A DNA stretch of 64,000 nucleotides from NCBI GenBank assembly GCA_045630455.1, contig JAZQTD010000030.1:127243-191242 (forward strand), written 5' to 3'. This document shows, in pieces, positions 7,222 to 60,734 of this stretch (positions are counted from its first letter, which is position 1; every line of letters begins with the position of its first letter). Under the pieces are notes generated by a model, which saw only the letters and a program-made list of their open reading frames with translations, ran no database searches and was not told the origin of the DNA. The position numbers and the translations under genes were made by a program. Source of the DNA: Candidatus Enterousia sp. (GTDB lineage: Bacteria > Pseudomonadota > Alphaproteobacteria > Rs-D84).

Positions 7222-7251
7222 AAGTACAGATTGTCAATATTTTTTGTTTTG

Positions 7252-14771: not shown

Positions 14772-15245
14772 ATGGAAAATAGTTTTTCGTTATTAAGTTT
14801 GTTCACGGGTGACTTGATGACATTGTTTGTGTCGTTGGTGCTGGTGGTGTTTAGTGTTATGTCTTGGGCGATTATTGTTGAAAAGTTTCGTCTGTGGCGT
14901 GGTCAAAAAAGAAATCCTGTTAAAATGAAGCCAAATGAAAATCTGGATGTATTTATTCGTCCGTTTGATAAGAACTTGTGGTTCTTGTCGATGGTGGCGT
15001 ATATTTCCCCGTTCATTGGGTTGTTTGGGACTGTTTGGGGTGTTATGGATTCTTTTGCGTCAATTGGTGTTAACCAGTCGGTCAGCATTGGCGTTATTGC
15101 CCCAGGGTTGGCGGTTGCGTTGGGTACAACTGCGTTGGGGTTAATTGCTGCGATTCCGGCGGCGATTGCACATCAGATTTATTCAAAGAAAGCAGACGAT
15201 TTGTATGAACGTTTGGAATGCGCCTGCAAAGAATTAAACAAATAA
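14772..15245 (+). CDS. tolQ: TolQ/ExbB-family proton channel, a short 157-aa form.
   Basis: MotA/TolQ/ExbB C-terminal TM pair (GLFGTVWGVM...ALGTTALGLIAAIPA); shorter than the canonical roughly 230 aa. Confidence 0.7.
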   Translation: MENSFSLLSLFTGDLMTLFVSLVLVVFSVMSWAIIVEKFRLWRGQKRNPVKMKPNENLDVFIRPFDKNLWFLSMVAYISPFIGLFGTVWGVMDSFASIGVNQSVSIGVIAPGLAVALGTTALGLIAAIPAAIAHQIYSKKADDLYERLECACKELNK

Positions 15246-15256
15246 TGGTGGGTTAA

Positions 15257-15655
15257 ATGTCCAGACTAAGACGCAGAAATAATGACTCTTCGATTCAATT
15301 AACGCCGATGATTGACGTTATGACGGTGTTGTTAGCGGTGTTTATGGTGACAACCCCGATGATGACGACTGGAATTGATTTGAATTTGCCGCGTGCGGGG
15401 GCTTCGGCTATGACGGGGGCAGATCACGCAATTCAAATTAGTGTGGACAAAGGCGGCAATTATTATCTGTCTGAAATGAAATTGTCACGCGATGAAATTG
15501 TAAAGCGTGCCATCGCGATGCGCAGCGAAAATCCTCAGTTGACGATTATGATAAGTGGTGATGCGGCTGCTGATTATGGTGCGGTTATGTCAATGATGGG
15601 TAAATTAAAAGACGCAGGTTTCCAGAAAGTTGGTCTGCGCACACAACCAGAATAA
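15257..15655 (+). CDS. tolR: TolR/ExbD.
   Basis: Single TM segment LTPMIDVMTVLLAVFMV with a biopolymer-transport ExbD/TolR periplasmic domain. Confidence 0.75.
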   Translation: MSRLRRRNNDSSIQLTPMIDVMTVLLAVFMVTTPMMTTGIDLNLPRAGASAMTGADHAIQISVDKGGNYYLSEMKLSRDEIVKRAIAMRSENPQLTIMISGDAAADYGAVMSMMGKLKDAGFQKVGLRTQPE

Positions 15656-16429
15656 TTGAACATTATGAAAGATAAGTATTTTAATCTTGAAAATATTTTA
15701 ATGTCTGTTGGTGGGCATTTGGTTGTGCTGGCAATTTTGGTGACGTCTGCAACAATTATTCTGAACCGTGCACAACTGATTACACCCGACAGGATTGAGA
15801 TAATAGAGATAGATTTAAATAATATCAAAATATCTGGTGATGAAACAAAATTGCAAAACGCAAATGCAGATGTTGCACCCGAAAAAGTCAAAGAAGAAAA
15901 GCCAGAACCTAAACCAAAGCCAGAGCCTGAAAAAGTAGAAGAAAAACCAATAGAAGAACCAACATTGGTTGAAGAGCCAGAACCAGAGCCTGAGCCCGAA
16001 AAGAAAGAGGAAAAAAAGCCAGAACCAGTCGAAGAGAAAAAGGTTGAGCCAGCACCTGCCCCGAAAAAGAAACGCGTTGTTCGTGTTAATCGAGAAGTGA
16101 TGAGCTTAGACAGGACTATGACTGTGTCGGTTGTTGATGCGCTACGTGTCGCGATGACTCGATGCTGGGTAATTGATACAACGCGCAATGATATTAGTGA
16201 TATTCGTGCAGTTGCACATTTGACTATGCGTTCTAATGGTACGGTGCGTGATGTTTGGTTTGAGTCCGAGGCACGCGCGGAAACAGACCCTGCATTTGCG
16301 TATGTATTGGAAACAATTCGTGATGCGATTAACACGTGCCAGCCATTAAATATGCTGCCCAAGAATGAATATAGCAAATGGGAAAAAATTCAATTAACAT
16401 TCTATCCAACCAGTGGTAAGGTTATGTAA
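15656..16429 (+). CDS. tolA: TolA-like protein.
   Basis: N-terminal TM anchor, a Lys/Glu/Pro-rich extended helical region (KPEPKPKPEPEKVEEKP...), and a C-terminal globular domain. Confidence 0.6.
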   Translation: MNIMKDKYFNLENILMSVGGHLVVLAILVTSATIILNRAQLITPDRIEIIEIDLNNIKISGDETKLQNANADVAPEKVKEEKPEPKPKPEPEKVEEKPIEEPTLVEEPEPEPEPEKKEEKKPEPVEEKKVEPAPAPKKKRVVRVNREVMSLDRTMTVSVVDALRVAMTRCWVIDTTRNDISDIRAVAHLTMRSNGTVRDVWFESEARAETDPAFAYVLETIRDAINTCQPLNMLPKNEYSKWEKIQLTFYPTSGKVM

Positions 16430-16469
16430 CACAAAGCCCGCGGGAGAGAGAATAACCAAAGGCAACACA

Positions 16470-17576
16470 ATGAAAAAATATTATTCTGAAAATTGGTATC
16501 AAGCAACTGACAAGTTTGTAAAAAATGCTGCAAATTTTAGTGATGTAAAGTGGTGTGTTGCAGACAATCATCAATTTGATATTCCGTATGTTTTGATTGG
16601 TGACGGACCAAACAAGATTGTTATAAATTCTGGTGTCCATGGGATTGAGGGCTATTTCGGCAGTGCAGCGCAAAATATGTTTTTGGATAAATTTGCGTGC
16701 AACTTATCACCCGAATTTTTGAAAAAGTATACAGTGTGCTTGATTCATATTATCAATGGTTGGGGAATGCAGAATCGTATGCGCGAAGTATTTGATACAA
16801 CACGTGGTGGCTTGGTAGATTTGAACCGTAATTTTGGTGTAGATTTTTCATCGCCAGATAAATTGCCACAAAATCCAAAGTATGAATTGGCGCACGATTT
16901 GTTGTTGTCAAAACCAGATGCGGTTAATAAAAAGAATGCTATAAAAGCATTTCGTGCAGAACATTTACACGATGGCGCGTGGGATGCGATAAGTTTTGGA
17001 CAATATACACACCCGTACGGCTTGTTTTATGGTGGTGCAGCACCAATGATTGAAAATAAAATGACTTTACATATTTATGACGATATTATGCGCGATGCAA
17101 AATCGTTAACTTCAATTGGTTTACATACTGGCTTAGGGCGTTTTGATAGAAAACGTGGGCGTGTAACAAGACAGTTGCTGGTGTCGCATCCGGCATCTCA
17201 TAAAAACACAGATTATTTTGCGGATATGCTGGTTGGAACCGCGGTTGTTTCAGACGAACGCGCTGTTAATGGCCCTGTGTTGTTGGGGGATTTGGTTGAT
17301 TGTTTAGAGGCGCGATATGGCACGAAAGAAATCCCAGTTTATACAGCCGATTTTGAAATCGGTACAGGTGAATTTCCAATTATGTCCCCTATTTACAAGC
17401 GTATGGATATGGGGGATGCACGATATGATTTGTTGAATCGTGGCGCAATTAGTCCACAAACACTGCAAAACTTAACAGAAAGTTGGTATCCGTCTGATCC
17501 AAAATGGCGTGATGCAGCACTGGATGGGGCAAACGTTTTATTTGCAGAGTTGATTAATGGGCATAAGCAACGATAA
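16470..17576 (+). CDS. M14 (zinc carboxypeptidase / succinylglutamate desuccinylase)-like protein in the position usually occupied by tolB.
   Basis: SGVHGIEG motif typical of M14-fold zinc hydrolases; start placed at MKKYYSENWYQ. Confidence 0.4.
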   Translation: MKKYYSENWYQATDKFVKNAANFSDVKWCVADNHQFDIPYVLIGDGPNKIVINSGVHGIEGYFGSAAQNMFLDKFACNLSPEFLKKYTVCLIHIINGWGMQNRMREVFDTTRGGLVDLNRNFGVDFSSPDKLPQNPKYELAHDLLLSKPDAVNKKNAIKAFRAEHLHDGAWDAISFGQYTHPYGLFYGGAAPMIENKMTLHIYDDIMRDAKSLTSIGLHTGLGRFDRKRGRVTRQLLVSHPASHKNTDYFADMLVGTAVVSDERAVNGPVLLGDLVDCLEARYGTKEIPVYTADFEIGTGEFPIMSPIYKRMDMGDARYDLLNRGAISPQTLQNLTESWYPSDPKWRDAALDGANVLFAELINGHKQR

Positions 17577-17580
17577 AAAA

Positions 17581-17600
17581 TCGCGCCCCCGTGGGGACGC
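17581..17600. terminator. Bidirectional terminator shared by the M14-like gene and rnpB.
   Basis: GCGCCCCCGTGGGGACGC hairpin with A/T runs on both sides. Confidence 0.6.
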
Positions 17601-17935
17601 GGTGCAGACACACGATAAGCCGGATTCTGTCCTGCCAAAAACCCAGATTCTTTCGAAACCCAAGTAATGGTAGTGGATATGATTAATCTGCAATTTGTGT
17701 TGCCACAATTGTCAAGCCTTCTACCCGCCCCCGATGTGGGACACATATAGGGGGCCTATTTGAAGTTGCTGCGCACAGAGATTGCCCGTTTCACTCGAAT
17801 TTAATCGTTTACGTCACTGTTGCTCTGATCGTCGGGTCGCCCCGCCCGGTATATTAGCCGGTGTGCTGTCCCAAGCAGTCCGGACTTTCCTCGTTCTGGC
17901 GAATGCCAGGCGCCATACCCTGTGTGTCGTACGTT
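17601..17935 (-). ncRNA. rnpB: RNase P RNA, type A.
   Basis: Minus strand contains the P3 hairpin GCCUGGCAUUCGCCAG, the P4 motif AGGAAAGUCCGGAC, the stretch GGGACAGCACACCGGCUAAUAUACCGGGCGGGGCGACCCGACGAUCAGAGCAACAG (a near match to the bacterial consensus), and the 3' segment GACAGAAUCCGGCUUAUCG. P1 pairs GACACAC with GUGUGUC. Confidence 0.8.
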
Positions 17936-17940
17936 CCCCT

Positions 17941-17968
17941 ATAATATCATGAATTTATAAAATGGCAA
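17941..17968 (-). promoter_or_regulatory. Sigma70-type promoter for rnpB.
   Basis: Minus strand TTGCCA, 16-nt spacer, TATTAT, about 7 nt before the RNA 5' end. Confidence 0.5.
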
Positions 17969-17969
17969 T

Positions 17970-18185
17970 TTATTTCTTGGCCCCTTGGGTGCGGGCAGAT
18001 TTTAATGCGTGATTTAATGCCGCACGGGCGATTTGACGAATTTTTGGGGCAAATGTGCGCATATTCATTGTGTCTGCCACAGTGTTGCCGAAAATGTTCG
18101 CAATGTAGTCCAACTGTGATGGTGCAATTGTGTAAATTTCACTGGTAATATCGTTAATGCTTAAATCTTGTACCGGTTCGCGCAT
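17970..18185 (-). CDS. Small hypothetical protein (71 aa).
   Basis: ORF ending right at the rnpB promoter; no recognised motif. Confidence 0.3.
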   Translation of the reverse strand: MREPVQDLSINDITSEIYTIAPSQLDYIANIFGNTVADTMNMRTFAPKIRQIARAALNHALKSARTQGAKK

Positions 18186-18310
18186 AGTAAAAATCCCTCT
18201 GTTTCACATATAATTTATCATATTTTTATGCCTGTTTCAGTCAATTTTTTCAAAAAAAGTTAAATTTAGTCCTTGCTTATTTCAAAATCCGTCACTATAT
18301 CATAAAGTAA

Positions 18311-18339
18311 CTTGACTGAAAGGTGCGAAATTGCTATAA
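18311..18339 (+). promoter_or_regulatory. Candidate sigma70 promoter for secA.
   Basis: TTGACT, 17-nt spacer, TATAAA. Confidence 0.4.
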
Positions 18340-18366
18340 ATTTCGTGATAAAATAAGGAAAGAAGT

Positions 18367-20979
18367 ATGTTAAAAAATGTAATTGGTAAATTGTTGGGTT
18401 CTGCAAATGACAGAATCATCAAAAACTATGATAAAACTGTATCTTTAATCAATGATTTAGAGCCAAAATATCACGCAATGAGTGATGATGAATTACGCGC
18501 ACAAACGGTTGCGTTGCGTGAACGTCTGGCAAATGGCGAAAAAGAAAAAGATATTTTGCCTGATGCGTTTGCTCTGGTACGAGAAGCATCAATTCGCACA
18601 ATCGGTCTGCGCCACTTTAATGTTCAGATGATTGGCGGTATGGTTTTGACCAATGGGCAAATTGCAGAAATGAAAACTGGCGAAGGTAAAACGCTGGTTG
18701 CAACATTGGCTATGTTCTTGAAAGCCCTGCACGGCAAAGGCGCGCATTTGATTACTGTTAATGACTATCTGGCATCGCGTGACGCTGACTGGATGGGACA
18801 GATTTATCGTTTCTTGGGGCTGTCGGTTGGTACAATCCAGCACGATATGACTGATGAAGAAAGACGTGCTGCGTATAATTGTGATATAACGTATGTGACT
18901 AATTCCGAATTGGGATTTGATTATCTGCGCGATAATATGAAGTTTTCAAAAGCACAACAAGTTTTGCGTCCGTTCTTTTACGCAATTGTTGACGAAGTGG
19001 ACAGTATTTTAATTGACGAAGCACGTACCCCACTGATTATTTCTGGGCCAGCCGAAGATACCAGTGAATTGTATGCGCACGTTGATGATGTTGTTGTTAA
19101 ACTGACAGAATCTGATTTTATCAAAGACGAAAAGGACAGACACGTTACACTGACTGAAAGTGGTGTTGACACTGCAACACGTTTGTTAAAAGAATCTGGA
19201 TTGCTGGTTGGCGATAATTTGTATGCATCTGAAAATGCAGCATTGGTTATGCATATTCAACAGTCTTTGTTGGCGCATCATTTGTATCAGAAAAATGTTA
19301 ACTATGTTGTGCGTGGTGGCGAAATCTTAATCGTTGATGAATTTACAGGTCGTGTTATGACTGGTCGCCGCTTTGGCAAGGGTTTGCATCAAGCAATCGA
19401 AGCCAAAGAACACGTTGCAGTTCAGCCCGAAAATCAAACTGTGTCCAGTATTTCATACCAGAATCTGTTCCGCTTGTATCCAACATTGTCTGGTATGACG
19501 GGTACTGCAATGACCGAAGCCGCAGAATTTGAAGAAATTTATAAGTTGCGCGTGGTTTCTATTCCAACAAATCGTCCAGTCGCACGTGTTGATCATCACG
19601 ATGAAATATATCGTAACAAAGATGAAAAAAATGATGCGATTATCAAACAAATTGAAGACTGTATGAAGCGCAAACAGCCTGTGTTGGTTGGTACTGTTTC
19701 AATTGAAAAGTCCGAAGAATTGGCGCAAATCGTTCGCAAAAAACTGGGGATTGAACCGGCGGTTTTGAATGCTAAACATCACGAATCTGAGGCAAAAATT
19801 GTTGCCCAAGCAGGTGCGCCAGGGGCGGTCACAATCGCAACAAATATGGCGGGTCGTGGTACTGACATTAAACTGGGTGGTAATGCCGAAGAACTGATTG
19901 CGAATTTGGATGCAGATGCCCCAGACTTTGAAGAAAAAAAGAAAGAAATTTATGCTACAATCGAAGCGAACAAGAAACAGGTTTTGGATGCGGGTGGCTT
20001 GTATGTTATCGGTACTGAACGTCACGAGTCGCGCCGTATTGATAACCAGTTGCGCGGTCGTTCAGGCCGTCAAGGCGACCCAGGCGATTCCAAATTCTTT
20101 TTGGCGTTGGATGACGATTTAATGCGTATCTTTGGCGCAGCGCGTTTACAGGGAATGTTAACTACGTTGGGCTTGAAAACAGGCGAAGCAATCACACATC
20201 CGTGGATTACAAAAGCGTTGGAAAAGGCTCAAAAACGCGTAGAAGCACGCTATTTCGAAGCTCGTAAAGAATTGCTGAAATACGATGACGTTGCAAACGA
20301 ACAGCGTACGGTTATTTACAAGCAACGCGACGACTTGATGGTGTCCGAAGACTTGTCGCCTTTGGCACACGAAATGATTGGCGATGTTGTTGAAATGATT
20401 TGCGAAAATAATATCCCAGAAAAAGCACACCAGATGGACTGGAATCTACAAGGGATTCACGATGCAATGTTGCGTGTGTTTGCGTTGGATATTACTGATA
20501 TTGAAAAATGGAAAACGGATGAAAATATTACTGAACGTAAAGCGTATGAAATACTTGTAAATTTGGCTGCGCGCCGTTATGAGCATCAGGCGACAAAGTA
20601 CGGTCCAGAATTAATGCAGATGGCATCACGTCAGATGATGTTGGGTGCATTGGATGCAGTGTGGAAAAAACATTTGCAACAGATGGACTATCTGCAAAGC
20701 GCAATTGGTTTGCGTGGTTATGCCCAGAAAAATCCGCTTTATGAATATAAAAACGAGGCATTGGATTTGTTCAAAAACACTGTGAATAATTTCAAAATCA
20801 TGTCTATATCTTATATCTGTCGTATGGAATTAACACGCGAAGATGTAAATGCCACAGAAAAACAACGCGCCGAACGTGATGCAGCGTTAAATCAGGCAAC
20901 CGGTGACAGTCGCCGTAACGCCCCGTGTCCGTGCGGTTCGGGTAAAAAATACAAGCATTGTTGTGGTAAATTAAACTAA
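18367..20979 (+). CDS. secA: Preprotein translocase ATPase SecA.
   Basis: 870 aa. DEAD-like motor domains, and a C-terminal zinc-binding tail CPCGSGKKYKHCCG. Confidence 0.95.
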   Translation: MLKNVIGKLLGSANDRIIKNYDKTVSLINDLEPKYHAMSDDELRAQTVALRERLANGEKEKDILPDAFALVREASIRTIGLRHFNVQMIGGMVLTNGQIAEMKTGEGKTLVATLAMFLKALHGKGAHLITVNDYLASRDADWMGQIYRFLGLSVGTIQHDMTDEERRAAYNCDITYVTNSELGFDYLRDNMKFSKAQQVLRPFFYAIVDEVDSILIDEARTPLIISGPAEDTSELYAHVDDVVVKLTESDFIKDEKDRHVTLTESGVDTATRLLKESGLLVGDNLYASENAALVMHIQQSLLAHHLYQKNVNYVVRGGEILIVDEFTGRVMTGRRFGKGLHQAIEAKEHVAVQPENQTVSSISYQNLFRLYPTLSGMTGTAMTEAAEFEEIYKLRVVSIPTNRPVARVDHHDEIYRNKDEKNDAIIKQIEDCMKRKQPVLVGTVSIEKSEELAQIVRKKLGIEPAVLNAKHHESEAKIVAQAGAPGAVTIATNMAGRGTDIKLGGNAEELIANLDADAPDFEEKKKEIYATIEANKKQVLDAGGLYVIGTERHESRRIDNQLRGRSGRQGDPGDSKFFLALDDDLMRIFGAARLQGMLTTLGLKTGEAITHPWITKALEKAQKRVEARYFEARKELLKYDDVANEQRTVIYKQRDDLMVSEDLSPLAHEMIGDVVEMICENNIPEKAHQMDWNLQGIHDAMLRVFALDITDIEKWKTDENITERKAYEILVNLAARRYEHQATKYGPELMQMASRQMMLGALDAVWKKHLQQMDYLQSAIGLRGYAQKNPLYEYKNEALDLFKNTVNNFKIMSISYICRMELTREDVNATEKQRAERDAALNQATGDSRRNAPCPCGSGKKYKHCCGKLN

Positions 20980-20984
20980 ATAAA

Positions 20985-21012
20985 ATTCCCCGATTTGGGG
21001 AATTTTTTGTTA
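20985..21012 (+). terminator. Intrinsic terminator after secA.
   Basis: TTCCCCGATTTGGGGAA hairpin plus a T-run. Confidence 0.5.
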
Positions 21013-21082
21013 TGTAAAAAATTTTATATTTTTGGCAAATATATGGTTGCCCCGCCCTGTGATTTTTTGCTATTGTGAGGGC

Positions 21083-24000
21083 ATGGAAAAACAATTCATT
21101 CATCTTAGAAATCATTCGCGGTTTTCTGTTGGGGCCAGCACCCTGAAAATCAAAGATTTTCCTAAACTTTGTGTTGCGGCGGGAATGTCTGCGTGCGCAT
21201 TAACAGATACGAATTTAATGTCAGGATGTGCTGAGTTTTCAGATGTGATGCCTAAGAATAAAGTGCAACCGATTATCGGTATTGAAATATCACTGAATCA
21301 TCACAGTGCAGACCCGAAAATTTTACGTTCAACATCACTGTCAAAAATTGTTTTGTTGGCGCAAAATCACACAGGGTATTTGAATCTGTGCGAATTAAAT
21401 CGAATTATGTATATGCGCGCTGAAAATCATCATCTGGGACCGTATATCTCGATGGATGAACTGCAATCACACAGCGATGGATTGATATGTTTGTCTGGGG
21501 CGCATTTGGGGCCGATTGGTATGGCGGTATTAAATAACCAAGATGCCCAGGCAAAAATATATGCCAAACAACTTTTGGAAATTTTTGGCAATCGGTTCTA
21601 TATGGAAGTCCAGCGACATGGTCTGGAAAATGAAATTAAAACAGAACCGACTTTTTTGAAAATTGCTCACGAATTAAATATCCCAATCGTTGCAACAAAT
21701 GATGTTTGTTTTGCATCTGATACTGATTACGAGCCAGCGGATGCATTGGGTTGTGTATTGGGTCAGACCAAGGTTATTGATCCAGAACGATCGCGCAAAT
21801 CTTCGGAACAGTATTTCAAATCAACAGAACAAATGTGGGAAATCTTTTCCGATTTGCCAGAGGCGTGCGAGAATACATATAAAATCGCACAGCGTTGCGG
21901 GTTTATGGTAAATGTTCATGAAAAGCCGCTGTTGCCACGTTTCGGTGATGACTTGGAAACAGAATGTCAAATGCTGCGTGACAATACGATGAATGGTTTG
22001 AAACGCCGTTTGGAACAGCACGGAATTACAGACACTGCGCCATATTATGAACAGGCTGAATTTGAATTAGGCGTTATTATTGGTATGGGATTCCCTGGCT
22101 ATTTCTTAATCGTTGCGGACTATATTGATTGGTGTAGAAACAATGATGTTTTGACGGGGCCTGGGCGTGGTTCGGGTGCCGGCTCTATTGTGGCGTGGGC
22201 GTTGGGGATTACCAATGTTGACCCGTTAAAATATGGTTTGCTGTTTGAACGTTTCTTGAATCCAGATCGTATTTCAATGCCGGACTTTGACGTTGACTTT
22301 GAGCCAACCGGTATCGAACGTGTGTTGGCGTATGTTTGCGATAAGTATGGGCACGATTCCGTATGTCGTATTATCACGTTTGGTTCGCTTCAGGCACGTG
22401 GTGCAATTCGTGATATTGGTCGTGTGTATGGGTTGCCCTATTCCAAGTCAGACAGACTTTCTAAACTGATACCACAAGATGCAAAAACACTAAAAGACGC
22501 GGTCAGTGTTTCGACTGAGATTCAAGACATATTGAATCAAGACGAAGATATGAACAAGGTTGTGACAGTTGCCGAAGAATTAGAAGGCAGTTTGCGCAAC
22601 TTGGGTCAGCATGCATGCGGTGTTGTTATTGGCGACCGACCAACGACTAAGATTGCGCCGGTTTATCGTGATCCTGCTAACCCGCTGCCATCGTGTCAGT
22701 ATGACGGAAAGTATTTGGAAAAATCTGGGTTGATTAAGTTCGACTTTTTGGGATTGGAAACGCTGGTTGTGTTAAAGTATGCAACGCGTTTAATTCAACA
22801 GACACGTGGCATTAATATCGATTTAGACCAGATTCCAACAGATGATGAAAAAACTATGCGTTTGTGGCAACAGGGTTTAACCGAAGGTATATTCCAATTC
22901 GATGCTCCGTTTGTTCAGCAGACTTTGCGCAAAATGCACCCGACCAGTTTCTTGGAAATATCTGCATTGAATGCGTTGAACCGTCCGGGGCCAATCGCGT
23001 TTATTCCCCAATTTATCGCACGTATGCATGGTGAAGAAAAAATTGAATACGTTCACCCCAAGGCAGAACCAATTCTAAAAGAAACGTATGGTATTATTGT
23101 TTATCAAGAACAGGTTATGCAATTAACGCGTGCGTTGGCGGGCTTTACACGTGGTCAATCTGATAATGTGCGTAAAGCGATGGGTAAAAAACTGATTGAA
23201 ATGCTGAACGAACTGGAAGGCAAGTTCTATGAAGGTTGTGAAAAAGAAGGCACTCTGGATCGTGCAACTGCAAAAGACCTGTGGGAAAAGTTCAAAGAAT
23301 TTGCAAAGTATGCGTTTAATAAATCTCATGCGATTGCCTATTCCATTGTTGCGAACCAGTGCGCGTATTTAAAAGCGAATTATACGCCCGAATTTTTAGC
23401 CGCATCTATGTCCAGTAATTTGAATGATACAGATCAACTGGCAATATTTGTTGATGATGCGAAAACTAATTTCAATATTCAAATTGTGCCACCAGATATT
23501 AATCAAAGTGAATCTTTGTTCACGGTGCGCGATGGTAAAATCGTCTATGGGTTGGCGGCGATTAAGGGTGTTGGAACGGCCGCGACTGATTTAATTGTTG
23601 CGGAACGTAATGCAAATGGGAAGTTCAAGAATCTGACCGATTTTGCAAAGCGTTGCGCACATATTATGAATAAACGAATTTTAGAAGCGTTTGCTAAGGT
23701 TGGCGTTCTGGATTCGCTTGAACCAAATCGCGCGGCAATATTTATGAATGCAGATGCGATATTGTTGTATGCAGCAAAATCTAAAGAAAGCGCAAGTGCG
23801 TTGTCGCTGTTTGCGAATACGGTCGAAGATGACGTTGCAGAAGATAGGTTGCATAAAAATCTGCCAAAAACTACGCCATGGACATTTAATCAGAAACTGG
23901 AAAACGAATTGTCTGCATTAGGATTTTATATCTCTGCCCACCCATTAGATCAGTACAAGGGGCTGATTGCACGATCCGGATTGGCAACCAGCGCAACTTT

Positions 24001-25770: not shown

Positions 25771-25837
25771 GGTGTTGATTCAAATGTCAAAAAAATGTTA
25801 AAATATCTTTAAGAGAGAAGTGAAAGTGAAGAGTCCT

Positions 25838-28162
25838 ATGAATAAAATTTTCCGGTTTTCTGCGCTGATTGCGGCTGTTTTTGCCGCAAATTTGGCAAGT
25901 GCGATTGGTCCACAAAATTCACGTGCGACGACGGCGGGCAATGTCGCGCCGGCGCGTGCGGCGGGTCGTGAGGTACAACGTGTCGGAGAAGGCGCAAATG
26001 CACGTTCTATTGCTGCGCGTTCATCTACGGTTTCTCGTGCAGCAGCAACACCTGGCATCGCTTCGCGTGCAGATGTTGCAACCGCAGCACGAAATGCTCG
26101 TAATGCCAATACTATCTCGCGCAGTGCGGTTGCAGCGCGTAGTGCGCGAGTGGCTGCATCTCCTGTTCGTAGTGCAGTGAATACAAAACGTAGTAATGTG
26201 TCGCGTGCAGCACAGTCACGTGCGACAGCAATATTTGAAGACGTTTCTAAGATTGGTGGTGGTTATGCAAAATGTCGTGAAGCGTATGCGACATGTATGG
26301 ATCAATTTTGTGCCAAGGCAAGTGATACGTATCGCCGTTGTTTTTGCAGTGATCGTTTTACAGGTTTTCGTGAAACTGAGGACGCTCTTGATCAAGCGAA
26401 GATTTTGTTGCAACAATTTGAAGATAATAACTTGAATGCGGTTGATAAAACAGCAGCAGAAGTTAGTGCTATGTATTCTGCCACGGTTGGTGAGGCTGCT
26501 ATTAAAAATGATATCAGTGGTGCGGCATCTTTGTTGGCGGAAATTAGCGATTTGATGTCCGGCAAAAAGAAGGCGTTCAGTTCTTCATCATCTACATCGT
26601 TGGGGGTAATGTCATTGGATTTTTCGTCAGATATTGGTGATATTTGGGGTGGTTCTTCGTCTGTATCGTCGATATTCGGCGGAGGCAGTGGTGTAGACGT
26701 GACCAGTCTGGAAGGAGAAGCTTTGTTTAATCAGGTTCATAAACAGTGTTCAGCACTGGTGTCGGAAAACTGTCAAAGCAACGCGGTCGCGAATATGGCA
26801 AAAAGTGCGTACGGTATTATGATTACTCAAGATTGTAATGCTTATGAAAGAAGTATCGACACCAAGCGTCAACAAGTGCAAAATACAGTGCGTCAGGCAG
26901 AAAAAATTCTGCGAGAGGCACGTTTAGAGGAATATCGTGCTCATAATTCCCAAGATGTAAATGACTGTTTAGATAAGGTTCGTACGGCTATGTTGTCGGA
27001 TACTGCGTGTGGTGCGAATTATAAACGTTGTTTGGACTACACTGGTGCGTATATCAATCAGTCTACAGGAGAACCCATATATTCACAGCGTCTGTTTGAG
27101 TTGACTGATTTGATTTTGCTGGATGGTGCTAGTGGCGGTGGGGATGTTTTGACTAAAAACGAAAAGTTTAATCAGTTCCTTGAATCACGTAAAATGTTTG
27201 TGACGAGTGCTTTGGATTCTTGTCGTGATATTTCTGAATTGGTTTGGACGGAATTTAAGCGAGCAGCATTGATTGAAATCGCCCAGGCGCAAGATGAAAA
27301 AATAGAAAGTGTAAAGTCTTCTTGTTTGGAAGTTGTGCGTGAATGCTATGATACGCAGTCCGATGCATTGAAAAGTTTTGATGATACAACAGCAGATGCA
27401 GCTGGTGCGATGAGTGCGTATGTTGCACGTTCTATGTGTCAAGAGAAAGTCGTTGCCTGTGCATCGTTGTATGGTGAGACGGGTGATTGTAAGTTTGATG
27501 GTAATGGCAAATTATTAGATGGCGGTCGTTGTGGATTGTCCGCGTTGTTAGAATACGTAGATGCGGTTGATACTGTGAGAGCCGCAGAGGGATGTGAAGT
27601 TGCTTTAACAAATTATGTTACGGAAATGTGTACACCGACGACCGATTTTGGTGCATATCCACAGCCTTGTGCTACTTTGAGTCAGAAGGACTTGGAAGAA
27701 CAGATAAAAAAACGCGCATCGTTATATTGTATAGATGGTGCGGGTGTTAAATACGATAAGTATGAAGACGGAGCTCAAAATTTTAACGATACCGTTGTAG
27801 AAGATAAGATAACTTCTTTGATAAATCGTTTGATGTCTGATATTTCAAGTTATTTGAAGACGGAATGTGAGGCTGTGGGTGGTTTATGGTATGTAACACA
27901 ACCCGATGGTACGAATATATTAAGTGTTTTCTATCACAGTATTGCTGGGAAGATCGAAGATTTAAAAACTTACGGTGTTTGTGTGGAACAGACAGTCAAA
28001 CTGGCTTGCGAACGTCAAGATGAGTTAACTGGTAATAATGGATATGCAACATATAACTATGCTTTGGATACGTGTGAGCTTTCCGATGAATGGTATCAAT
28101 TCCAATGCACAGATGTGTTGGGTGGAACGTGGAGTAATGATGTATGTTCATGGGTGTATTAG
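25838..28162 (+). CDS. Secreted protein with an Ala/Arg/Ser low-complexity N-region and a large Cys-rich domain; unknown family.
   Basis: Signal peptide MNKIFRFSALIAAVFAANLASA. ARS-rich region around aa 30-140. More than 30 Cys, including CREAYATCMDQFC...CFC. The motif is shared with the ORF at 39123..40364. Confidence 0.6.
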   Translation: MNKIFRFSALIAAVFAANLASAIGPQNSRATTAGNVAPARAAGREVQRVGEGANARSIAARSSTVSRAAATPGIASRADVATAARNARNANTISRSAVAARSARVAASPVRSAVNTKRSNVSRAAQSRATAIFEDVSKIGGGYAKCREAYATCMDQFCAKASDTYRRCFCSDRFTGFRETEDALDQAKILLQQFEDNNLNAVDKTAAEVSAMYSATVGEAAIKNDISGAASLLAEISDLMSGKKKAFSSSSSTSLGVMSLDFSSDIGDIWGGSSSVSSIFGGGSGVDVTSLEGEALFNQVHKQCSALVSENCQSNAVANMAKSAYGIMITQDCNAYERSIDTKRQQVQNTVRQAEKILREARLEEYRAHNSQDVNDCLDKVRTAMLSDTACGANYKRCLDYTGAYINQSTGEPIYSQRLFELTDLILLDGASGGGDVLTKNEKFNQFLESRKMFVTSALDSCRDISELVWTEFKRAALIEIAQAQDEKIESVKSSCLEVVRECYDTQSDALKSFDDTTADAAGAMSAYVARSMCQEKVVACASLYGETGDCKFDGNGKLLDGGRCGLSALLEYVDAVDTVRAAEGCEVALTNYVTEMCTPTTDFGAYPQPCATLSQKDLEEQIKKRASLYCIDGAGVKYDKYEDGAQNFNDTVVEDKITSLINRLMSDISSYLKTECEAVGGLWYVTQPDGTNILSVFYHSIAGKIEDLKTYGVCVEQTVKLACERQDELTGNNGYATYNYALDTCELSDEWYQFQCTDVLGGTWSNDVCSWVY

Positions 28163-30875: not shown

Positions 30876-31436
30876 ATGAATTCAAATTTGCAAATTATTT
30901 CCGGACAATTTCGTGGGCGCAAGTTGCGCCTGCCGCCGGATGCGCGTCCGACCCAGAATCGCGCACGAATTGCGCTGTTTAATATGCTGGAATCTGGGAT
31001 TGTTGATGCAAATGCAAATATGAATGTGTGGGATGTTTTTGCGGGTTCGGGTGCTTTTGGTCTGGAATGTGTGTCGCGATATCCCAATACCAAGGTTACG
31101 TTTACAGATGTTGCCCCGACATCAATAAAAACAGTGCGTGATAATTTAAGCCTTTTAGGTGTAGGTGCGCGTGCATCTGTATTCCAAAATGATGCAATTG
31201 CAGCAGTTGGTAGATTTGGTGCAGAAGCAGATGTTGTTTTTGTAGATGCACCATATGACAATCCAGAACTGGGGCGAGTATTTGTAAAAAAAATTGGCGG
31301 AGTCGCAAAAAGTGGCACAATTTTAATCTGGGAACAAGAATCTGTGAACTTTATTGTAGCAGATGAAGCACAATGGGAGATGTTGCGCGACAAAACGTAT
31401 GGACGCGCCCGTTTCTTGATTTTAGAAAAAAAGTAA
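30876..31436 (+). CDS. rsmD: 16S rRNA m2G966 methyltransferase RsmD.
   Basis: RPTQNRARIALFN, DVFAGSGAFGLE, and the VFVDAPY signature. Confidence 0.8.
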   Translation: MNSNLQIISGQFRGRKLRLPPDARPTQNRARIALFNMLESGIVDANANMNVWDVFAGSGAFGLECVSRYPNTKVTFTDVAPTSIKTVRDNLSLLGVGARASVFQNDAIAAVGRFGAEADVVFVDAPYDNPELGRVFVKKIGGVAKSGTILIWEQESVNFIVADEAQWEMLRDKTYGRARFLILEKK

Positions 31437-31608
31437 AATCCTTGCTTATTTTGTCCTTGTAGCATTTTTCTGATTTTTCTATACTTATATTAGTGATATC
31501 CTGGGAAAGGATGTTAACGTATTGTTTGAACGGCATTTTTTGTATTCAGTCTAGTGTGCAAGTTACTGGACTGTTTTTGGAATGCTCTTTTGGGCATGTG
31601 GGAGGAAT

Positions 31609-31806
31609 ATGAGGCGTATAGTGCTGATTATTTGTATATTGTCTACTGGAAACGCGTTCGCGGATCTGGCGTCGACCACATATGTTCAAAGTGTTTCAGA
31701 AACAAAAGTCGATGTTACAGCAAATGCGAATCAAATAATGCAGGGAACATACCATGTTAGTGGGGTGATGACGGTAGAAACGCCGCCATTACCACCAATG
31801 CCATAA
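31609..31806 (+). CDS. Small secreted protein (65 aa) upstream of the giant repeat protein.
   Basis: GGGAGGAA Shine-Dalgarno site, then MRRIVLIICILSTGNAFA signal peptide; ends 16 nt before the next gene. Confidence 0.45.
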   Translation: MRRIVLIICILSTGNAFADLASTTYVQSVSETKVDVTANANQIMQGTYHVSGVMTVETPPLPPMP

Positions 31807-31821
31807 TCCAAACGGCATAAA

Positions 31822-34683
31822 ATGAAACGCGTATTGTGTTTTTTGTTTAGTGTTTTTCTTGGCTGGACCGCGTATGCAGCCCAGGCTGTTAATGTTGAAT
31901 ATATTCATGATTTAATACTGCAAAAATGGAATATTTCTGTGCCATATAATTCCGCACTAAATAATATGCAGGCTGTGGCTAACATGAAATATTTATTAAC
32001 ATCAGTTGATGTAGCGAATGCTATGTTAAATGGGGGCGCGATTACAGATTGGGGAAACAGCACATATGCAACAAACCAAGTGGCAGATACCGTTGCCGCT
32101 AACCAGGTGATTGCAAATCTGATTAAATTGCCGGTTGGCGAATATCCGTTTGAAATAAAAACGACCAAGGATACCATATACTTCAGTTTTAGTATGTCGG
32201 CAAAAGGAAGCTTTGTTGTAAACTGGGGGGATGGCAATATAGAAGTAATAACCAACCCAGATACCAGTACTGTTACATATGATCATACGTATAATGTTGC
32301 AAAAAATTATACTATTGGCATAAAGGGAACTGCGACCGCATACAGTAATGGTTCTTCTATACCGGTGATTAGTTTTGATGGAAATGAAAACATTTCGATG
32401 ATATTTGGTTCTGTTGGCCAAGTCTTTCCAACATTAGCAAATGGTACGAATCCAAAATTTTATTACACATTTGCAAATTTGCCCAATATATCTGGTGGAA
32501 TTCCAAGTACATTGTTTAGCGGTATAACGGGTGTACCCGCAAAAAATATGTTTTATGGAACTTTTTATGGTTCTGCTGGATTAACCGGTGGCATTCCCGG
32601 GACATTGTTTTCAGGACTGGATGGCGCGCCAACCGAAGGAATATTTTATCGTACGTTCGAAAAATGTACGGGCTTAAGTGGTCCTATCCCATCCGATTTA
32701 TTCGCTGGGATTCATGGTACACCGGCACGTGATATGTTTCACAGCACGTTTTCTGGGTGCAAGGGACTGACAGCGATACCAGATGGACTGTTTGCCGGTA
32801 TAAATGGCGCGCCCGCACAACGTATGTATAATGCTACTTTTTATGAATGTTCGGGCATAACAAGTAATATCCCAGACAAGCTATTTGGTACATTTAATGG
32901 TGCTCCTCAAGAATTGATGTTTGGTAACACGTTTCATGGGTGTACTAACCTAACGGGGAAAATCCCTGTTGATTTGTTTGCTGGGATAACTGGGGCGCCA
33001 ATACAGCGTATGTTTGAAGGCACGTTCAGTATGTGTTCTGGATTAACGGGGCAAATACCGGCGAATTTATTTTCAAGCATGGGGGGGACGCCAGCCGCCA
33101 GTATGTTTTATAATACATTTACAGGATGTTCTGGGTTGACCGGCACTGTGCCAGCGGGACTGTTTGCAACATTTAGTGGTGCGCCAGCACAGCGTATGTT
33201 TAATAAAACGTTTTATAACTGTAATCAGCTGACAGGAATTGATAGTGGCGTGTTTGGTGAGTTGTCCGGTGATGCTCAAGCTGGAATGTTTGAAGAAATG
33301 TTTAATCGTGCAACCGCTTTGCGTGGTCCTTCTGCTAAGATTGGGAGTAAGTATTTGTATGAAATATGGCCCGATGCGACCAGCGCCCAGGTTGGAAAAA
33401 TGTATTCTGAGGCAACAGGTTTGTCAGATTATGAATATATACCAATTGTATGGGGGGGGCTGGGACAGCAACGACCAGATTATAAACTGTATTTAGATCA
33501 TTATTATCAGCGGGTGGGAAGCAATGGAGATGTCCGTGATTCTGATTATTTGCTAATGATTTCAGCAGCCGGTAAGTACAACATTGATTGGGGAGATGGA
33601 ACAGAAGAAGTTATTGAAAAAAATACAGTTGGAGAGCAATGGTTTGGACATGATTATGCTAATGATGGCGAATATCTTGTTCGTATTGGAGGACGGGCCA
33701 CAGAGTATGCCAGTGATCCTGATTTATCAACTGTAATATTAGGTAGCAGTATAGCGTGCATAGATGAGTGGAATCGTCCGGGTGGAAAATGTCCCCTTGC
33801 ATTAACACATATTGATGGATGTTTAGGGTGCGTTTTCCCAACATTGGAAAATGGCTCGCAACCACGATTTATTGACACATTTGCAGATGCAATGGATTTT
33901 TATAACATACCAGCCGGACTGTTTTCGGATATTAATGGTGCACCCGTGAAAAATATGTTTCAACGAACTTTTTCCTTTACATCTTTGTCAACGGTGCCGG
34001 CGGGTTTATTCGCAGGAATCCAGGGGGCGCCAGCGGAATATATGTTTAGCAGCACTTTTGCTGGTACCTATTTAGAATCAATACCAGAAGGATTGTTTGC
34101 GGGGATTAAAGGACCTCCGGCAAAAGGGATGTTTAAAGGAACGTTTACTGAAGCCGCAATAGAATCAATACCAGAAGGATTGTTTGCAGGAATCAAAGGA
34201 CCTCCGGCCGAGGATATGTTTAATGCTACATTTTCGGCTAACTGGGGACTAGAATCAATCCCCGAAGATTTATTTGCGGGCATTCAAGGTCCACCTGCCG
34301 CAGGTATGTTCGCCGGTACTTTTAGATTTGCACCAATAACATCCCTACCGTCGGGCTTATTCGCCGGGATTCAGGGACCGCCGGCCGAGGATATGTTTAA
34401 TAGTACATTTGCGAATAATTGGGGACTGGAATCAATACCTGAAAACTTATTTGCGGGGATTGATACCACCGCGCCATCTGCACGGTATATGTTTGCAGAA
34501 ACATTTAGGGACTGCTTTAACTTGACTGGACCGTCCGCACGTATTAATGGACGATACCTGTATAATATTTGGCCCGATGGATACGATATGTATTCAGGAT
34601 GCGAAGGGCTGACTGATTATAATTGTATCCCAAGTGCATGGGGCGGTGGTGGCCATAATTGCCTATGGACCGATCCTACATGA
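31822..34683 (+). CDS. Giant secreted modular repeat protein built from two modules, each a PKD-like domain followed by 7-8 novel 29-31-aa repeats (LRR-like) and a conserved C-cap.
   Basis: Signal peptide MKRVLCFLFSVFLGWTAYA. PKD-like segments VNWGDGNIEV...YDHTY and IDWGDGTEEV...GHDY. Repeat consensus LFAGIxGAPAxxMFxxTFxxCxGLTGxIPxx. Caps YLYEIWPD...GLSDYEYIPIVWGG and YLYNIWPD...GLTDYNCIPSAWGG. Confidence 0.7.
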   Translation: MKRVLCFLFSVFLGWTAYAAQAVNVEYIHDLILQKWNISVPYNSALNNMQAVANMKYLLTSVDVANAMLNGGAITDWGNSTYATNQVADTVAANQVIANLIKLPVGEYPFEIKTTKDTIYFSFSMSAKGSFVVNWGDGNIEVITNPDTSTVTYDHTYNVAKNYTIGIKGTATAYSNGSSIPVISFDGNENISMIFGSVGQVFPTLANGTNPKFYYTFANLPNISGGIPSTLFSGITGVPAKNMFYGTFYGSAGLTGGIPGTLFSGLDGAPTEGIFYRTFEKCTGLSGPIPSDLFAGIHGTPARDMFHSTFSGCKGLTAIPDGLFAGINGAPAQRMYNATFYECSGITSNIPDKLFGTFNGAPQELMFGNTFHGCTNLTGKIPVDLFAGITGAPIQRMFEGTFSMCSGLTGQIPANLFSSMGGTPAASMFYNTFTGCSGLTGTVPAGLFATFSGAPAQRMFNKTFYNCNQLTGIDSGVFGELSGDAQAGMFEEMFNRATALRGPSAKIGSKYLYEIWPDATSAQVGKMYSEATGLSDYEYIPIVWGGLGQQRPDYKLYLDHYYQRVGSNGDVRDSDYLLMISAAGKYNIDWGDGTEEVIEKNTVGEQWFGHDYANDGEYLVRIGGRATEYASDPDLSTVILGSSIACIDEWNRPGGKCPLALTHIDGCLGCVFPTLENGSQPRFIDTFADAMDFYNIPAGLFSDINGAPVKNMFQRTFSFTSLSTVPAGLFAGIQGAPAEYMFSSTFAGTYLESIPEGLFAGIKGPPAKGMFKGTFTEAAIESIPEGLFAGIKGPPAEDMFNATFSANWGLESIPEDLFAGIQGPPAAGMFAGTFRFAPITSLPSGLFAGIQGPPAEDMFNSTFANNWGLESIPENLFAGIDTTAPSARYMFAETFRDCFNLTGPSARINGRYLYNIWPDGYDMYSGCEGLTDYNCIPSAWGGGGHNCLWTDPT
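34081..34470 (+). repeat. Tandem 87-bp coding repeats (about 4.5 copies, high DNA identity) inside the repeat-protein gene.
   Basis: ATACCAGAAGGATTGTTTGC(G/A)GG...GGACCTCCGGC... recurs with an 87-bp period at about 34081, 34168, 34255, 34342 and 34429. Confidence 0.6.
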
Positions 34684-34684
34684 T

Positions 34685-35041
34685 ATGTTTCATGGTACGT
34701 TTTACGGTTGTTCAAAACTGCGTAGCAATATTCCAACGGGGCTGTTTGCCGGTATAAGTGGCGCGCCCGCCCAGGGTATGTTTAGCCAAACATTTTATCA
34801 GTGCACAAAAATAACCGGTATTGATGCCAATGTTTTTGGTGATTTAACAGGTGCCGCACAAACAGATATGTTTAAGCAAACGTTTTATGGCAATAATAAA
34901 ATGTATGGATATTCACCACAAATAAATGGGCAATATTTGTATGAGATATGGCCAAATGCGATCCAGGCTCAGGTTGGGGGTGCTTTCTATAAATGTCAAA
35001 AGCTGTCTGACTATCGTTCTATCCCCAGTGCATGGCGATAA
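34685..35041 (+). CDS. Mini-paralog or possibly frameshifted extension of the repeat protein, with two repeats plus a C-cap.
   Basis: MFHGTFYGCSKLRSNIPTGLFAGISGAPAQGMF...YLYEIWPNA...LSDYRSIPSAWR. The ATG lies 1 nt after the upstream stop. No Shine-Dalgarno site. Reads in a different frame from the 953-aa ORF. Confidence 0.35.
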   Translation: MFHGTFYGCSKLRSNIPTGLFAGISGAPAQGMFSQTFYQCTKITGIDANVFGDLTGAAQTDMFKQTFYGNNKMYGYSPQINGQYLYEIWPNAIQAQVGGAFYKCQKLSDYRSIPSAWR

Positions 35042-35760: not shown

Positions 35761-35774
35761 ACCTTTGAATTTAT

Positions 35775-35804
35775 TTACCGCCCGCTCGGGCGGTTTTTTT
35801 TATA
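35775..35804 (+). terminator. Intrinsic terminator after rplY.
   Basis: ACCGCCCGCTCGGGCGGT followed by T8. Confidence 0.6.
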
Positions 35805-35896
35805 TGTTTTTTTAAGAAAAAGTGTCTATTGCCTCTTGAAATGCTTTTATGATTAACTATATGGTGGTTAAGCGAAAAATTTAAGGAGTGAATAAA

Positions 35897-39122: not shown

Positions 39123-40364
39123 TTATTTGCTGATGCAGCTGGCGAACGTTTGTGCCAAAAGAGATGTTTCAGACTGAGATAATTGTGCCACAGGAATAGT
39201 ATAGCATCGTGCACTGTCGCGGATAACAAAAACCTTGGTGCCACGTTTGTATGCAGTTTGCATATTATCCATTTGAGCACTTGTTAAAAATGCGTTTTGG
39301 GTCAGTGCGTTATTCGTCAAGCCTGCCTGAACTACTTGGTACGCAGTTGCATAGTCCCATAATTCAGAACGCGATTCGATTTCCATAAAAACAGACTGTG
39401 TTTCATATGGATTTTCAAGCTTTACATTAGTTGTTGGAAAAGCTGTCCCAATCGCCAGTGCAGCGACAGTTTGCAGAGCTGTAGGCTCGTTTGAAGAAGC
39501 AACTGTGCCAGTTGTGTTGATTTGCAAATTATCGCCACATGCTAAATTCATGCGATTTGTATAGCCTGCCAAAACAGCATCAACAGCCGCTTGCCAATCT
39601 GCACCTTTTTCATTCAGATTCAGGCTTACGATTTTTTCAGCCCAGCCCCAAATATTTGCACCTACGTTGCCAGCACTAGCGAAACGCGATACCATTTCAG
39701 CACTGCCCCCAGGAACGCCCGAGCCACAGTAATCTGTCAAATAAGAATTAAGTTTACTAGATGTTTCGTTGCTATATGCAAGTGCAACCGAATGGCATGC
39801 CATTGCTGCTTCTAATTCTTGGCGACGTTGGATACATAAATCAGAATTAGACTTAGATAACAGGGTTGCCATATTTGCCATAGATAAGTAGGACATTAGT
39901 TCCTGTTGCACATAGGATGGGCACAGACGTGCGGCCGTATTCATGCCACCTGGACTGGTGCGAGTGTTCGTGTTATATTGGGGCAATAATACTGAATTGT
40001 CTTTCTGTAGACACAATAATGTATAGTTGTACAATTCGGATTCCGTAGCATATTGACACTTAGATGTGCGCTGACCTGGGACGGTTGTTATATCCCCGCA
40101 ATATTCGGATAAACACGCATAAATCTTTTCGCGACACGCCGTATCAACATCTGGCTGGGTTACCATATAGTATGTATTACGCTGGTTAGCCTTGTACGCG
40201 TTGGCCAACCCTTGGTTGCCACGTGCGCCGTCTGTGCTGGGCGTATACATAGAAACACTGCGCGAATTAGATGCGGAATTTGCAGCATTTACAGTTCCCA
40301 TAGTTGCAGCATTGGCACCAAAACACAGGCTAAACAAGCCAAAATATATTAGAACTTTATTCAT
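39123..40364 (-). CDS. Secreted Cys-rich protein, paralogous to the 25838..28162 product.
   Basis: Signal peptide MNKVLIYFGLFSLCFGANA. Low-complexity N-region. Shared motif DTACREKIYACLSEYC, compare AKCREAYATCMDQFC. Confidence 0.6.
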   Translation of the reverse strand: MNKVLIYFGLFSLCFGANAATMGTVNAANSASNSRSVSMYTPSTDGARGNQGLANAYKANQRNTYYMVTQPDVDTACREKIYACLSEYCGDITTVPGQRTSKCQYATESELYNYTLLCLQKDNSVLLPQYNTNTRTSPGGMNTAARLCPSYVQQELMSYLSMANMATLLSKSNSDLCIQRRQELEAAMACHSVALAYSNETSSKLNSYLTDYCGSGVPGGSAEMVSRFASAGNVGANIWGWAEKIVSLNLNEKGADWQAAVDAVLAGYTNRMNLACGDNLQINTTGTVASSNEPTALQTVAALAIGTAFPTTNVKLENPYETQSVFMEIESRSELWDYATAYQVVQAGLTNNALTQNAFLTSAQMDNMQTAYKRGTKVFVIRDSARCYTIPVAQLSQSETSLLAQTFASCISK

Positions 40365-55328: not shown

Positions 55329-55353
55329 TAACTGGGGCATTGTCCCAGTTGTT
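55327..55353. other. Intergenic inverted-repeat hairpin built from the AACTGGGG core motif; likely a bidirectional terminator or protein-binding site.
   Basis: AACTGGGGCATTGTCCCAGTT; the reverse complement of the right arm reads AACAACTGGGAC. Confidence 0.5.
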
Positions 55354-57528: not shown

Positions 57529-57559
57529 ATCGCCCCCATAGCAATTTTGTTGGGTGGGG

Positions 57560-57583
57560 TTCAAACAACTGGGGTGACTTATA
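57560..57583 (+). repeat. Copy B of the direct repeat TTCAAACAACTGGGGTGACTTATA, at the right boundary of the glycan island, about 30 nt upstream of the Stealth gene start.
   Basis: See copy A. Confidence 0.6.
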
Positions 57584-60728: not shown

Positions 60729-60734
60729 CTTAGG

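Follow-up and report, generated by a model that had tools for sequence, protein, structure and literature searches.

A two-module leucine-rich repeat protein of Candidatus Enterousia and its relatives among phage tail proteins

Genes at the locus and architecture of the large protein

The locus described here consists of a gene for a large repeat protein and a small gene directly upstream of it, both on the forward strand of a Candidatus Enterousia contig (JAZQTD010000030.1, assembly GCA_045630455.1), of which a stretch of 64,000 nucleotides (positions 127,243 to 191,242, hereafter the window, whose numbering is used below) was analyzed. Candidatus Enterousia is a genus in the uncultured order Rs-D84 with genomes mostly below 1 Mb; respiration, standard transporters and several steps of glycolysis are missing from Rs-D84 genomes, and these bacteria, which are common across animal guts and have never been cultured, have been proposed to live in dependence on partners (PMC12306168). 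The closest genome to the window in GTDB is a Candidatus Enterousia metagenome-assembled genome (MAG) carrying the locus designated L004, and two further loci, L001 and the more distant L003, are used for comparison below. All compared sequences are metagenome assemblies.

The open reading frame (ORF) of the large gene is intact, and the internal duplication noted in a preliminary description of this DNA is borne out by the alignment of residues 102-557 with residues 558-953 (35% identity, E 9e-61). Each half is a module in which a beta-sandwich with a PKD-like motif is followed by a repeat solenoid and a cap (Table 1). When repeats were counted by the anchor [MI][FY]xx[TM]F, module 1 had nine and module 2 had seven, and each module also starts with one degenerate leading unit beyond those counted. 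The cap, YLYEIWPD...GL(S/T)DY..IP..W, occurs three times (families D7, D11 and D12), the third copy being in a 118-aa ORF that follows the large gene. The repeats and caps first described were recovered as well. The protein had also been called giant, which at 953 aa it is not, many of its homologues being 1200-1660 aa long. A lookup returned no record of the exact 953-aa sequence.

The small gene, with its strong Shine-Dalgarno site and signal peptide, was confirmed; 15 nt separate its stop from the ATG of the large ORF. Its product has a predicted signal peptide at about residues 1-18 (AFA/D), whose removal would leave about 47 aa with the C-terminus ...VETPPLPPMP. In the structural model of the large protein discussed below, the predicted signal peptide appears as a helix at residues 2-14, with low confidence after it. 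These signal-peptide-like N-termini on both proteins, as read from sequence, support the earlier proposal that the repeat proteins form an exported family and that a small partner is encoded with them. The large gene is under purifying selection, with ratios of nonsynonymous to synonymous substitution rates (omega) of 0.13-0.29 against close relatives, and the ortholog at L003 keeps the two-module architecture at 48% identity. For the small partner omega was about 0.3, a value of little weight with 1-2 substitutions per class.

Table 1. Features of the large gene, its small partner and the adjoining remnant, in window positions
Feature	Positions	Strand	Remarks
Shine-Dalgarno-like GGGAGGA	31600-31606	+	read from sequence; precedes small gene
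Small partner gene, 65 aa	31609-31806	+	stop 15 nt before ATG of large ORF
Large gene, 953 aa including signal peptide	31822-34683	+	intact ORF; stop at 34681-34683
Predicted Sec signal peptide, aa 1-19 (...TAYA/AQ)	31822-31878	+	sequence pattern: n-region MKR, hydrophobic core, AxA
N-terminal domain, aa 21-107	31882-32142	+	three beta-bridge and helix units: VNVEYIHDLI / ANMKYLLTSVD / ADTVAANQVI
Beta-sandwich 1, aa 108-200	32143-32421	+	PKD-like motif WGDG...HTY...YTIGIKG; seven strands
LRR-type solenoid 1, aa 201-505	32422-33336	+	leading unit and 9 repeats of 30-31 aa
Cap 1, aa 506-548 (...YLYEIWPD...GLSDYEYIPIVWGG)	33337-33465	+	crossover site giving the one-module allele
Inter-module linker, aa 549-575	33466-33546	+	kept in the two-module ortholog of L003
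Beta-sandwich 2, aa 576-670 (NIDWGDG...HDY...YLVRIGG)	33547-33831	+	alignment of modules 1 and 2; comparison with L003
LRR-type solenoid 2, aa 671-906	33832-34539	+	leading unit and 7 repeats of 29-32 aa
Cap 2 and C-terminal tail, aa 907-953 (...YLYNIWPD...GLTDYNCIPSAWGGGGHNCLWTDPT)	34540-34680	+	cap sequence
Deletion junction, 9-bp microhomology GATATGTTT	34682-34690	+	window joins L001 position 2881 to 4238
Remnant of second family gene, 118-aa ORF	34685-35041	+	starts 1 nt after TGA of large ORF, other frame
High-identity recombination tract, ~2.3 kb	~31040/31160-33455	+	3' rsmD, intergenic region, small partner, module 1

Fold of the modules and their phage tail relatives

The AlphaFold2 model of residues 1-557, built with 37 homologues, was confident (predicted local distance difference test score 92.3, predicted TM-score 0.80) and stacks the repeats, each forming one turn, into a curved solenoid, as expected at the fold level for the leucine-rich repeat (LRR) superfamily. 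The units are 29-32 aa long compared with 20-30 aa and the pattern LxxLxLxx(N/C)xL in LRRs, the core MFxxTFxxCxGL being one residue longer, and the ladder Cys is held by most repeats of module 1 and missing from most of those of module 2, which are of the ...LESIPEGLFAGIxGPPA... type. The family profile also matches the FLS2 ectodomain by sequence (E 5.6e-4). On the basis of the modelled fold and this match, the repeat is assigned as an LRR of unusually long period rather than as a new fold. The preliminary description had placed the repeat outside known families and had named in advance a profile match to an established family as refuting that claim; such a match was found to phrog_9915, a PHROGs family of unknown function to which the large protein belongs (E 6.5e-46, 157 bits, in three stretches), and indirectly, through phage tail proteins, to LRR_5 and DUF285, so that the claim was abandoned.

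General family collections recognized little of the three ORFs directly, Pfam giving no usable match and NCBIfam sub-threshold ones only. A Pfam scan of the large protein gave no match at E ≤ 1, LRR_5, PKD and SLH included, and the LRR_5 gathering threshold (27.7 bits) was reached only by a phage homologue, gp35, described below. In NCBIfam there were sub-threshold matches to TIGR02167 (PARCEL) at E 0.05 and 0.006 (13.4 and 16.3 bits against a cutoff of 30), which span only the first 12-13 profile positions and do not place the protein in DUF285/PARCEL, and a weak, sub-threshold match to PamR at aa 132-171, the WGDG region. The earlier assignment of a PKD-like domain is borne out in part: two homologues exceed the Pfam PKD threshold at the corresponding position (P0002 at 110-179, 33 bits; P0038 at 130-171, 25 bits) and the family profile matches the PKD domain 4xed (E 0.008), with no Pfam match on the large protein itself. 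The sole match of a phmmer search against PDB sequences, a ferredoxin-reductase, was judged spurious.

The closest relatives of known context were phage tail proteins. By tblastn the repeat region was found in 49-51 phage records, including Phapecoctavirus 'tail protein' genes adjoining tail-fibre genes and gp353 of Bacillus phage G. The clearest of them is gp35 ('tail protein I', YP_009882546.1), which the P2-like Klebsiella phage ST16-OXA48phi5.4 encodes between a baseplate gene and a tail-collar-fibre gene and which matches module 1 by BLASTP at E 1e-20; its domains run in the order Tail_P2_I, Big_2, a beta-sandwich DYGDG...KEYTITVKNTETA, repeats of about 24-25 aa and a cap ...GLDDYDDLPGNW, and its repeats pass both Pfam LRR_5 (41.3 bits, cutoff 27.7) and DUF285/PF03382 (32.3 bits, cutoff 25). 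A putative tail protein of Synechococcus phage S-CBWM1 (ATW62777.1) similarly combines PKD, DUF285 and LRR_5 in Pfam, and the phage intermediates above the PF03382 cutoff of 25 scored 32.3 and 26.7 bits. Since these tail homologues pass both Pfam thresholds, they tie the large protein to BspA-type LRR_5 and to DUF285/PARCEL. In IMG/VR, 30 viral loci align to residues ~108-544 only, among them a 416-aa ORF after tail-fibre-like ORFs (L088:4839-6089) with a WGDG sandwich, 29-31-aa repeats and a cap ...MSDYASVPSTWR, and a 545-aa ORF (L087:4722-6359) with near-identical 30-aa repeats, IPTDLFRYNTQVSTxGFxxTFxGCxNLTGS.

The phage proteins thus have the same beta-sandwich, (W/Y)GDG...Y...YTI, and the same F..TF..C..L(T/S)..IP..LF repeats followed by a cap ...(L/M)(S/D)DY...(I/V/L)P..W; the 29-31-aa period is common to the IMG/VR ORFs and the large protein, unlike the ~24-25 aa of gp35. 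Sandwich, solenoid and cap, together with the long period, form a complete unit that phage tail proteins and the cellular protein have in common. They differ at the N-terminus, where the phage proteins have virion-attachment parts (Tail_P2_I, Big_2, RCC1-like) and not a signal peptide and three-helix domain, and searches of phages turned up no gene of the small partner family.

It could be asked whether the gene is simply a receptor-binding protein gene of a prophage or tailocin resident in the chromosome, as the homology of its modules to tail proteins and phrog_9915 might suggest. We regard this as extremely improbable. The neighbours are housekeeping genes (iPGM, TadA, RsmD, L25, DnaK, AmiC) in the same order at L001, L003 and L004; the signal peptide and N-terminal domain are absent from the viral proteins, residues 21-107 being missing from every viral match; and none of the 28 window ORFs scanned, which include about half of those of at least 150 aa, matched a phage structural family in Pfam or NCBIfam.

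Likenesses to other cellular repeat proteins are of several degrees. BspA-type LRR proteins (Pfam LRR_5, PF13306) share the F..C..L..IP core, with repeats of ~23-25 aa in contrast to 29-32 aa in the large protein, which has an extra segment G(I/L)xG(A/P)Pxxx between repeat cores. An example is the LRR_5 member BACOVA_04585 of Bacteroides ovatus (PDB 4fs7). PARCEL/DUF285 proteins (PF03382, TIGR02167) of Mollicutes have variable tandem repeats with a common MF..(x)F..C/a..(L/F) core, although canonically their units have 25 residues and a second half rich in W and N, and they are lipoproteins whereas the large protein shows no lipobox. They are multigene, variable and horizontally exchanged surface proteins of minimal-genome, host-dependent bacteria, and multigene organization, variable regions and horizontal exchange are features of the present family as well (PMC2996958, PMC2824730); by analogy, these lipoprotein families are the closest biological parallel. 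The plant-specific extracellular LRR (LxxLxLxxNxLSGxIPxxLGxL; FLS2, GSO1, BRL2, PGIP) differs in its period of 24 aa and in its ladder residue, which is Asn as opposed to Cys or none, and there was no sign of common descent beyond the LRR superfamily.

Family expansion, the small partner and remodelling of the locus

The large protein has at least 448 homologues, nearly all of them unnamed or recorded as 'hypothetical protein [Alphaproteobacteria bacterium]'. A scan of one genome per species gave 370 relatives, all in gut-type alphaproteobacterial MAGs, and at least 16 family loci were present in a single MAG (JAAVBP...). The family is lineage-specific, and it is expanded both in Candidatus Enterousia and in further Alphaproteobacteria of the gut that are Rs-D84-like. 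No paper on it was found, including in literature pairing Rs-D84 with leucine-rich repeats.

In about 33 of 66 related loci the large gene is directly preceded by a homologue of the small partner, and where large genes are in tandem each comes with its own partner. The family alignment (A4) begins with a signal peptide, which is followed by (I/L)A(S/T)xxYV and an insert that varies, and closes with KVDxxxxxxQxMxGxYxVxGxxxVPTPPLP at the very C-terminus. An exhaustive profile search of 1.84 billion proteins returned 89 clusters at 50% identity, nearly all of proteins of 51-216 aa matched at the C-terminus; two matches, P0229 and P0239, were spurious (Ig-like and LVIVD repeat proteins). The partner had no Pfam match, a borderline PHROG match only (best E 0.003, for one long variant) and no tblastn match in 50,697 phage records. 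The idea that it is a phage tail-fibre-like peptide, suggested by a resemblance of A(S/T)xxYV...Q.M.G.Y.V.G to tail-fibre motifs, was dropped when neither the PHROG nor the tblastn comparison gave support. A 70-aa hypothetical ORF, gp36, lies directly 3' of tail protein I in Klebsiella phage ST16-OXA48phi5.4 (L083 7908-8120) and showed no tblastn similarity to the partner. Between rsmD and the small gene there is a terminator-like hairpin (31547-31573, + strand; a 10-pair stem, then TTTTTGG) that ends about 25 nt before the small gene's Shine-Dalgarno site and may terminate rsmD or form a 5' leader structure; such sites were no more numerous in the scan than expected by chance. Together with the N-terminal three-helix domain of the large protein, the small partner is a previously uncurated element, and both could become family models.

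Comparison of the related loci indicates repeated remodelling. At L001 the order is RsmD, small A, a 557-aa one-module gene, small B, a second full gene and L25. The 118-aa ORF that follows the large gene in the window has neither signal peptide nor Shine-Dalgarno site, begins mid-repeat, matches phrog_9915 (E 6.3e-13) and equals the last 118 codons of the second L001 gene. Given this correspondence and a junction at which both L001 breakpoints carry the same GATATGTTT, the ORF is a deletion remnant; it does exist 1 nt after the stop codon, as first reported, and is the remains of a second full gene rather than a mini-paralog. L004 has a different, shorter remnant of 86 aa. In the one-module alleles of L001 and L004 the cap is a mosaic, its 5' part being that of window cap 1 and its 3' part that of cap 2, which indicates that module 2 was lost or gained by recombination between caps. 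The two-module ortholog of L003 has a second module that is 60% identical and exactly one repeat shorter.

A further pattern is the high-identity tract, 97-99% identical to L001 and L004, to the left of which (iPGM, TadA and 5' rsmD) identity is 70-82%. Mismatch density falls from ~19-23% to ~2.2-2.6% at ~31015-31055 against L001 and ~31155 against L004, and the right edge of the tract lies inside cap 1. Synonymous divergence (dS) is ~0.05 in module 1, compared with 0.24-0.27 for RsmD (omega 0.13-0.25) and 0.43-0.58 for L25 (omega ~0.07). Because of the jump in identity within rsmD and the agreeing dS values, these alignments are best explained by a recent exchange of the partner and module-1 cassette, by homologous recombination, between diverged lineages. 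The same tract pattern was seen in at least three independent assemblies.

An alternative explanation for the variation could be phase-variable switching by slippage in 87-bp repeats, of which four near-identical copies had originally been described. A 28-nt exact repeat, the longest in the large gene, does occur 87 nt apart (34073 and 34160), and from the L003 ortholog there is a difference of exactly one repeat. Tandem Repeats Finder (TRF) nevertheless reported no 87-bp tandem array of the kind expected of a contingency locus; the units starting at 34000-34351 are 48-77% identical to each other as DNA, which is not near-identical; and close relatives differ by module-scale recombination and microhomology deletions. 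Slippage as the switch of this gene is accordingly very improbable. A true candidate for repeat-number slippage, unlike the window gene, is the viral ORF L087:4722-6359 with its ~11 near-identical repeats. The earlier suggestion of a variable family stands with respect to one- and two-module alleles and the one-repeat difference from L003, though not with respect to its source: in these comparisons variation arises from cap-to-cap recombination, microhomology deletions and import of whole tracts.

The remnant ORF, and other deletions in related contigs, might be thought to indicate a decaying or non-functional gene. This is about as improbable as a prophage origin, since the 953-aa ORF is intact with omega well below one, the distant L003 ortholog retains both modules, and the AlphaFold2 model is confident.

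The remaining genes of the window are mostly of housekeeping type (S1, trigger factor, SecA, DnaE, RsmH, DnaK, AmiC, RF, TsaD, XseA, RecN, UvrD and Lon, in addition to iPGM, TadA, RsmD and L25), and the window also has a class A RNase P RNA (17600-17932, - strand) and a two-piece (permuted) alphaproteobacterial tmRNA (60696-61075, + strand), both of use in placing it taxonomically. Five ORFs of 378-780 aa had no significant Pfam or NCBIfam match (1416-3509, 25820-28162 and 52558-54483 on the + strand; 39123-40364 and 56548-57684 on the - strand), the first having weak coiled-coil matches only, and may be lineage-specific envelope or interaction proteins. Between L25 and DnaK, L004 has a 305-aa ORF (6780-7697), glycosyltransferase-like by the look of its sequence, that is missing from the window (35761-35887). 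Adjoining AmiC in L003 is a gene of more than 2838 aa (14845-22742, - strand) with Flg_new (Listeria-Bacteroides repeat) and Ephrin_rec_like matches; some homologues of the large protein also carry Flg_new (P0084, P0086 and P0097), which suggests that domains are shuffled between the large surface proteins of the lineage.

Proposed role in attachment

The reading we favor, with a probability of roughly 60%, is that the large gene encodes a Sec-exported attachment or binding protein of an expanded Candidatus Enterousia family built from phage-tail-type modules. An intact, constrained protein with a signal peptide, two LRR-type modules homologous to distal parts of phage tail proteins, family expansion and strain-level remodelling are the observations from which this starts. 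Each module comprises a PKD-like beta-sandwich, a solenoid of 29-32-aa LRRs of BspA/DUF285 kind and, at its C-terminal end, a cap; this three-part unit also makes up the distal part of phage tail proteins, which are plausibly receptor-binding proteins, and the cellular version adds a signal peptide and N-terminal three-helix domain. The latter would hold the protein on the cell envelope, maybe together with the small secreted partner as an accessory or anchoring subunit, and the solenoids would bind a structure at the surface of a partner cell or of the host animal, giving attachment in an organism of proposed partner dependence. The locus evolves by gain and loss of modules between caps, by microhomology deletions that leave remnants and by import of tracts from related lineages.

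The N-terminal domain weakly resembles SLH domains. The SLH trimer (e.g. Bacillus anthracis Sap, PDB 6bt4) is ~165 aa long as opposed to ~87 aa here, and no TRAE-like motif was apparent on reading the three units, no search aimed at that motif having been made. SLH was not detected by Pfam in 22 members or by profile search of PDB sequences (E ≤ 10), and Foldseek against the PDB gave no match to the domain below E 0.01. Membership of the SLH family, which would take three PF00395-recognized motifs and binding of a pyruvylated wall polymer, is thus not supported, and a role of residues 21-107 as an SLH-like envelope anchor is put forward as a hypothesis only. Were the domain to tie the many paralogues of each genome to a wall polymer, the family could be structural rather than a specific adhesin, its solenoids mainly building an S-layer-like coat that is protective or antigenically variable. 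The window contains a TagF/TarF-like CDP-glycerol glycerophosphotransferase gene (55352-56539, - strand; Pfam Glyphos_transf, E 8e-18), unusual for an alphaproteobacterium, which hints at a wall-polymer pathway whose product, teichoic-acid-like or capsular, could serve as the ligand of an SLH-like anchor, and tracts are traded between lineages as with surface antigens. We nonetheless consider a coat unlikely, given that SLH signal is absent from the sequence, that Foldseek lends no support, and that a module common to phage tail proteins suggests binding rather than lattice formation.

Several points weigh against an attachment protein. First is its location: the sequence showed neither a lipobox or other known outer-membrane anchor nor an autotransporter domain or dedicated secretion signal, so that the protein could stay periplasmic; the NCBIfam scan of window ORFs without a Pfam match gave nothing bearing on secretion or anchoring. 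Secondly, LRR_5 and DUF285 are reached transitively, the large protein itself having no Pfam match and PARCEL scores of 13-16 bits against 30. Thirdly, phage records label the homologues 'tail protein' only, their receptor-binding role being putative. Finally, the partner is missing from about half of the related loci and thus cannot be essential for all family members. The first point leads to a separate reading, namely that the protein is Sec-exported, retained and binds peptidoglycan or another periplasmic ligand, in agreement with a Sec-type signal peptide as the only targeting feature visible. We judge this quite unlikely, as the phage relatives act outside the cell, BspA/DUF285-type repeat proteins are typically located at the surface (PMC2996958), and strong strain-level turnover with exchange between lineages is typical of exposed proteins; an attachment protein probably displayed at the surface is preferred for these reasons.

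The locus is a real feature worth annotating, and represents neither a new repeat class nor a system of a new kind. With these results phrog_9915 and hundreds of 'hypothetical proteins' gain a fold and a place among families, that of BspA/DUF285-type LRRs. It is possible, as a tentative and rather doubtful extension, that Enterousia attaches to other cells through a battery of phage-receptor-binding-type modules mounted on an undescribed anchor, made up of the pseudo-threefold three-helix domain and the ...VPTPPLP partner, with cassettes traded between species like phage tail-fibre modules. Being expanded, exported, under purifying selection, exchanged between lineages and built on a phage-tail-type module, the family is a concrete candidate for the attachment machinery of these bacteria and a target for binding assays.

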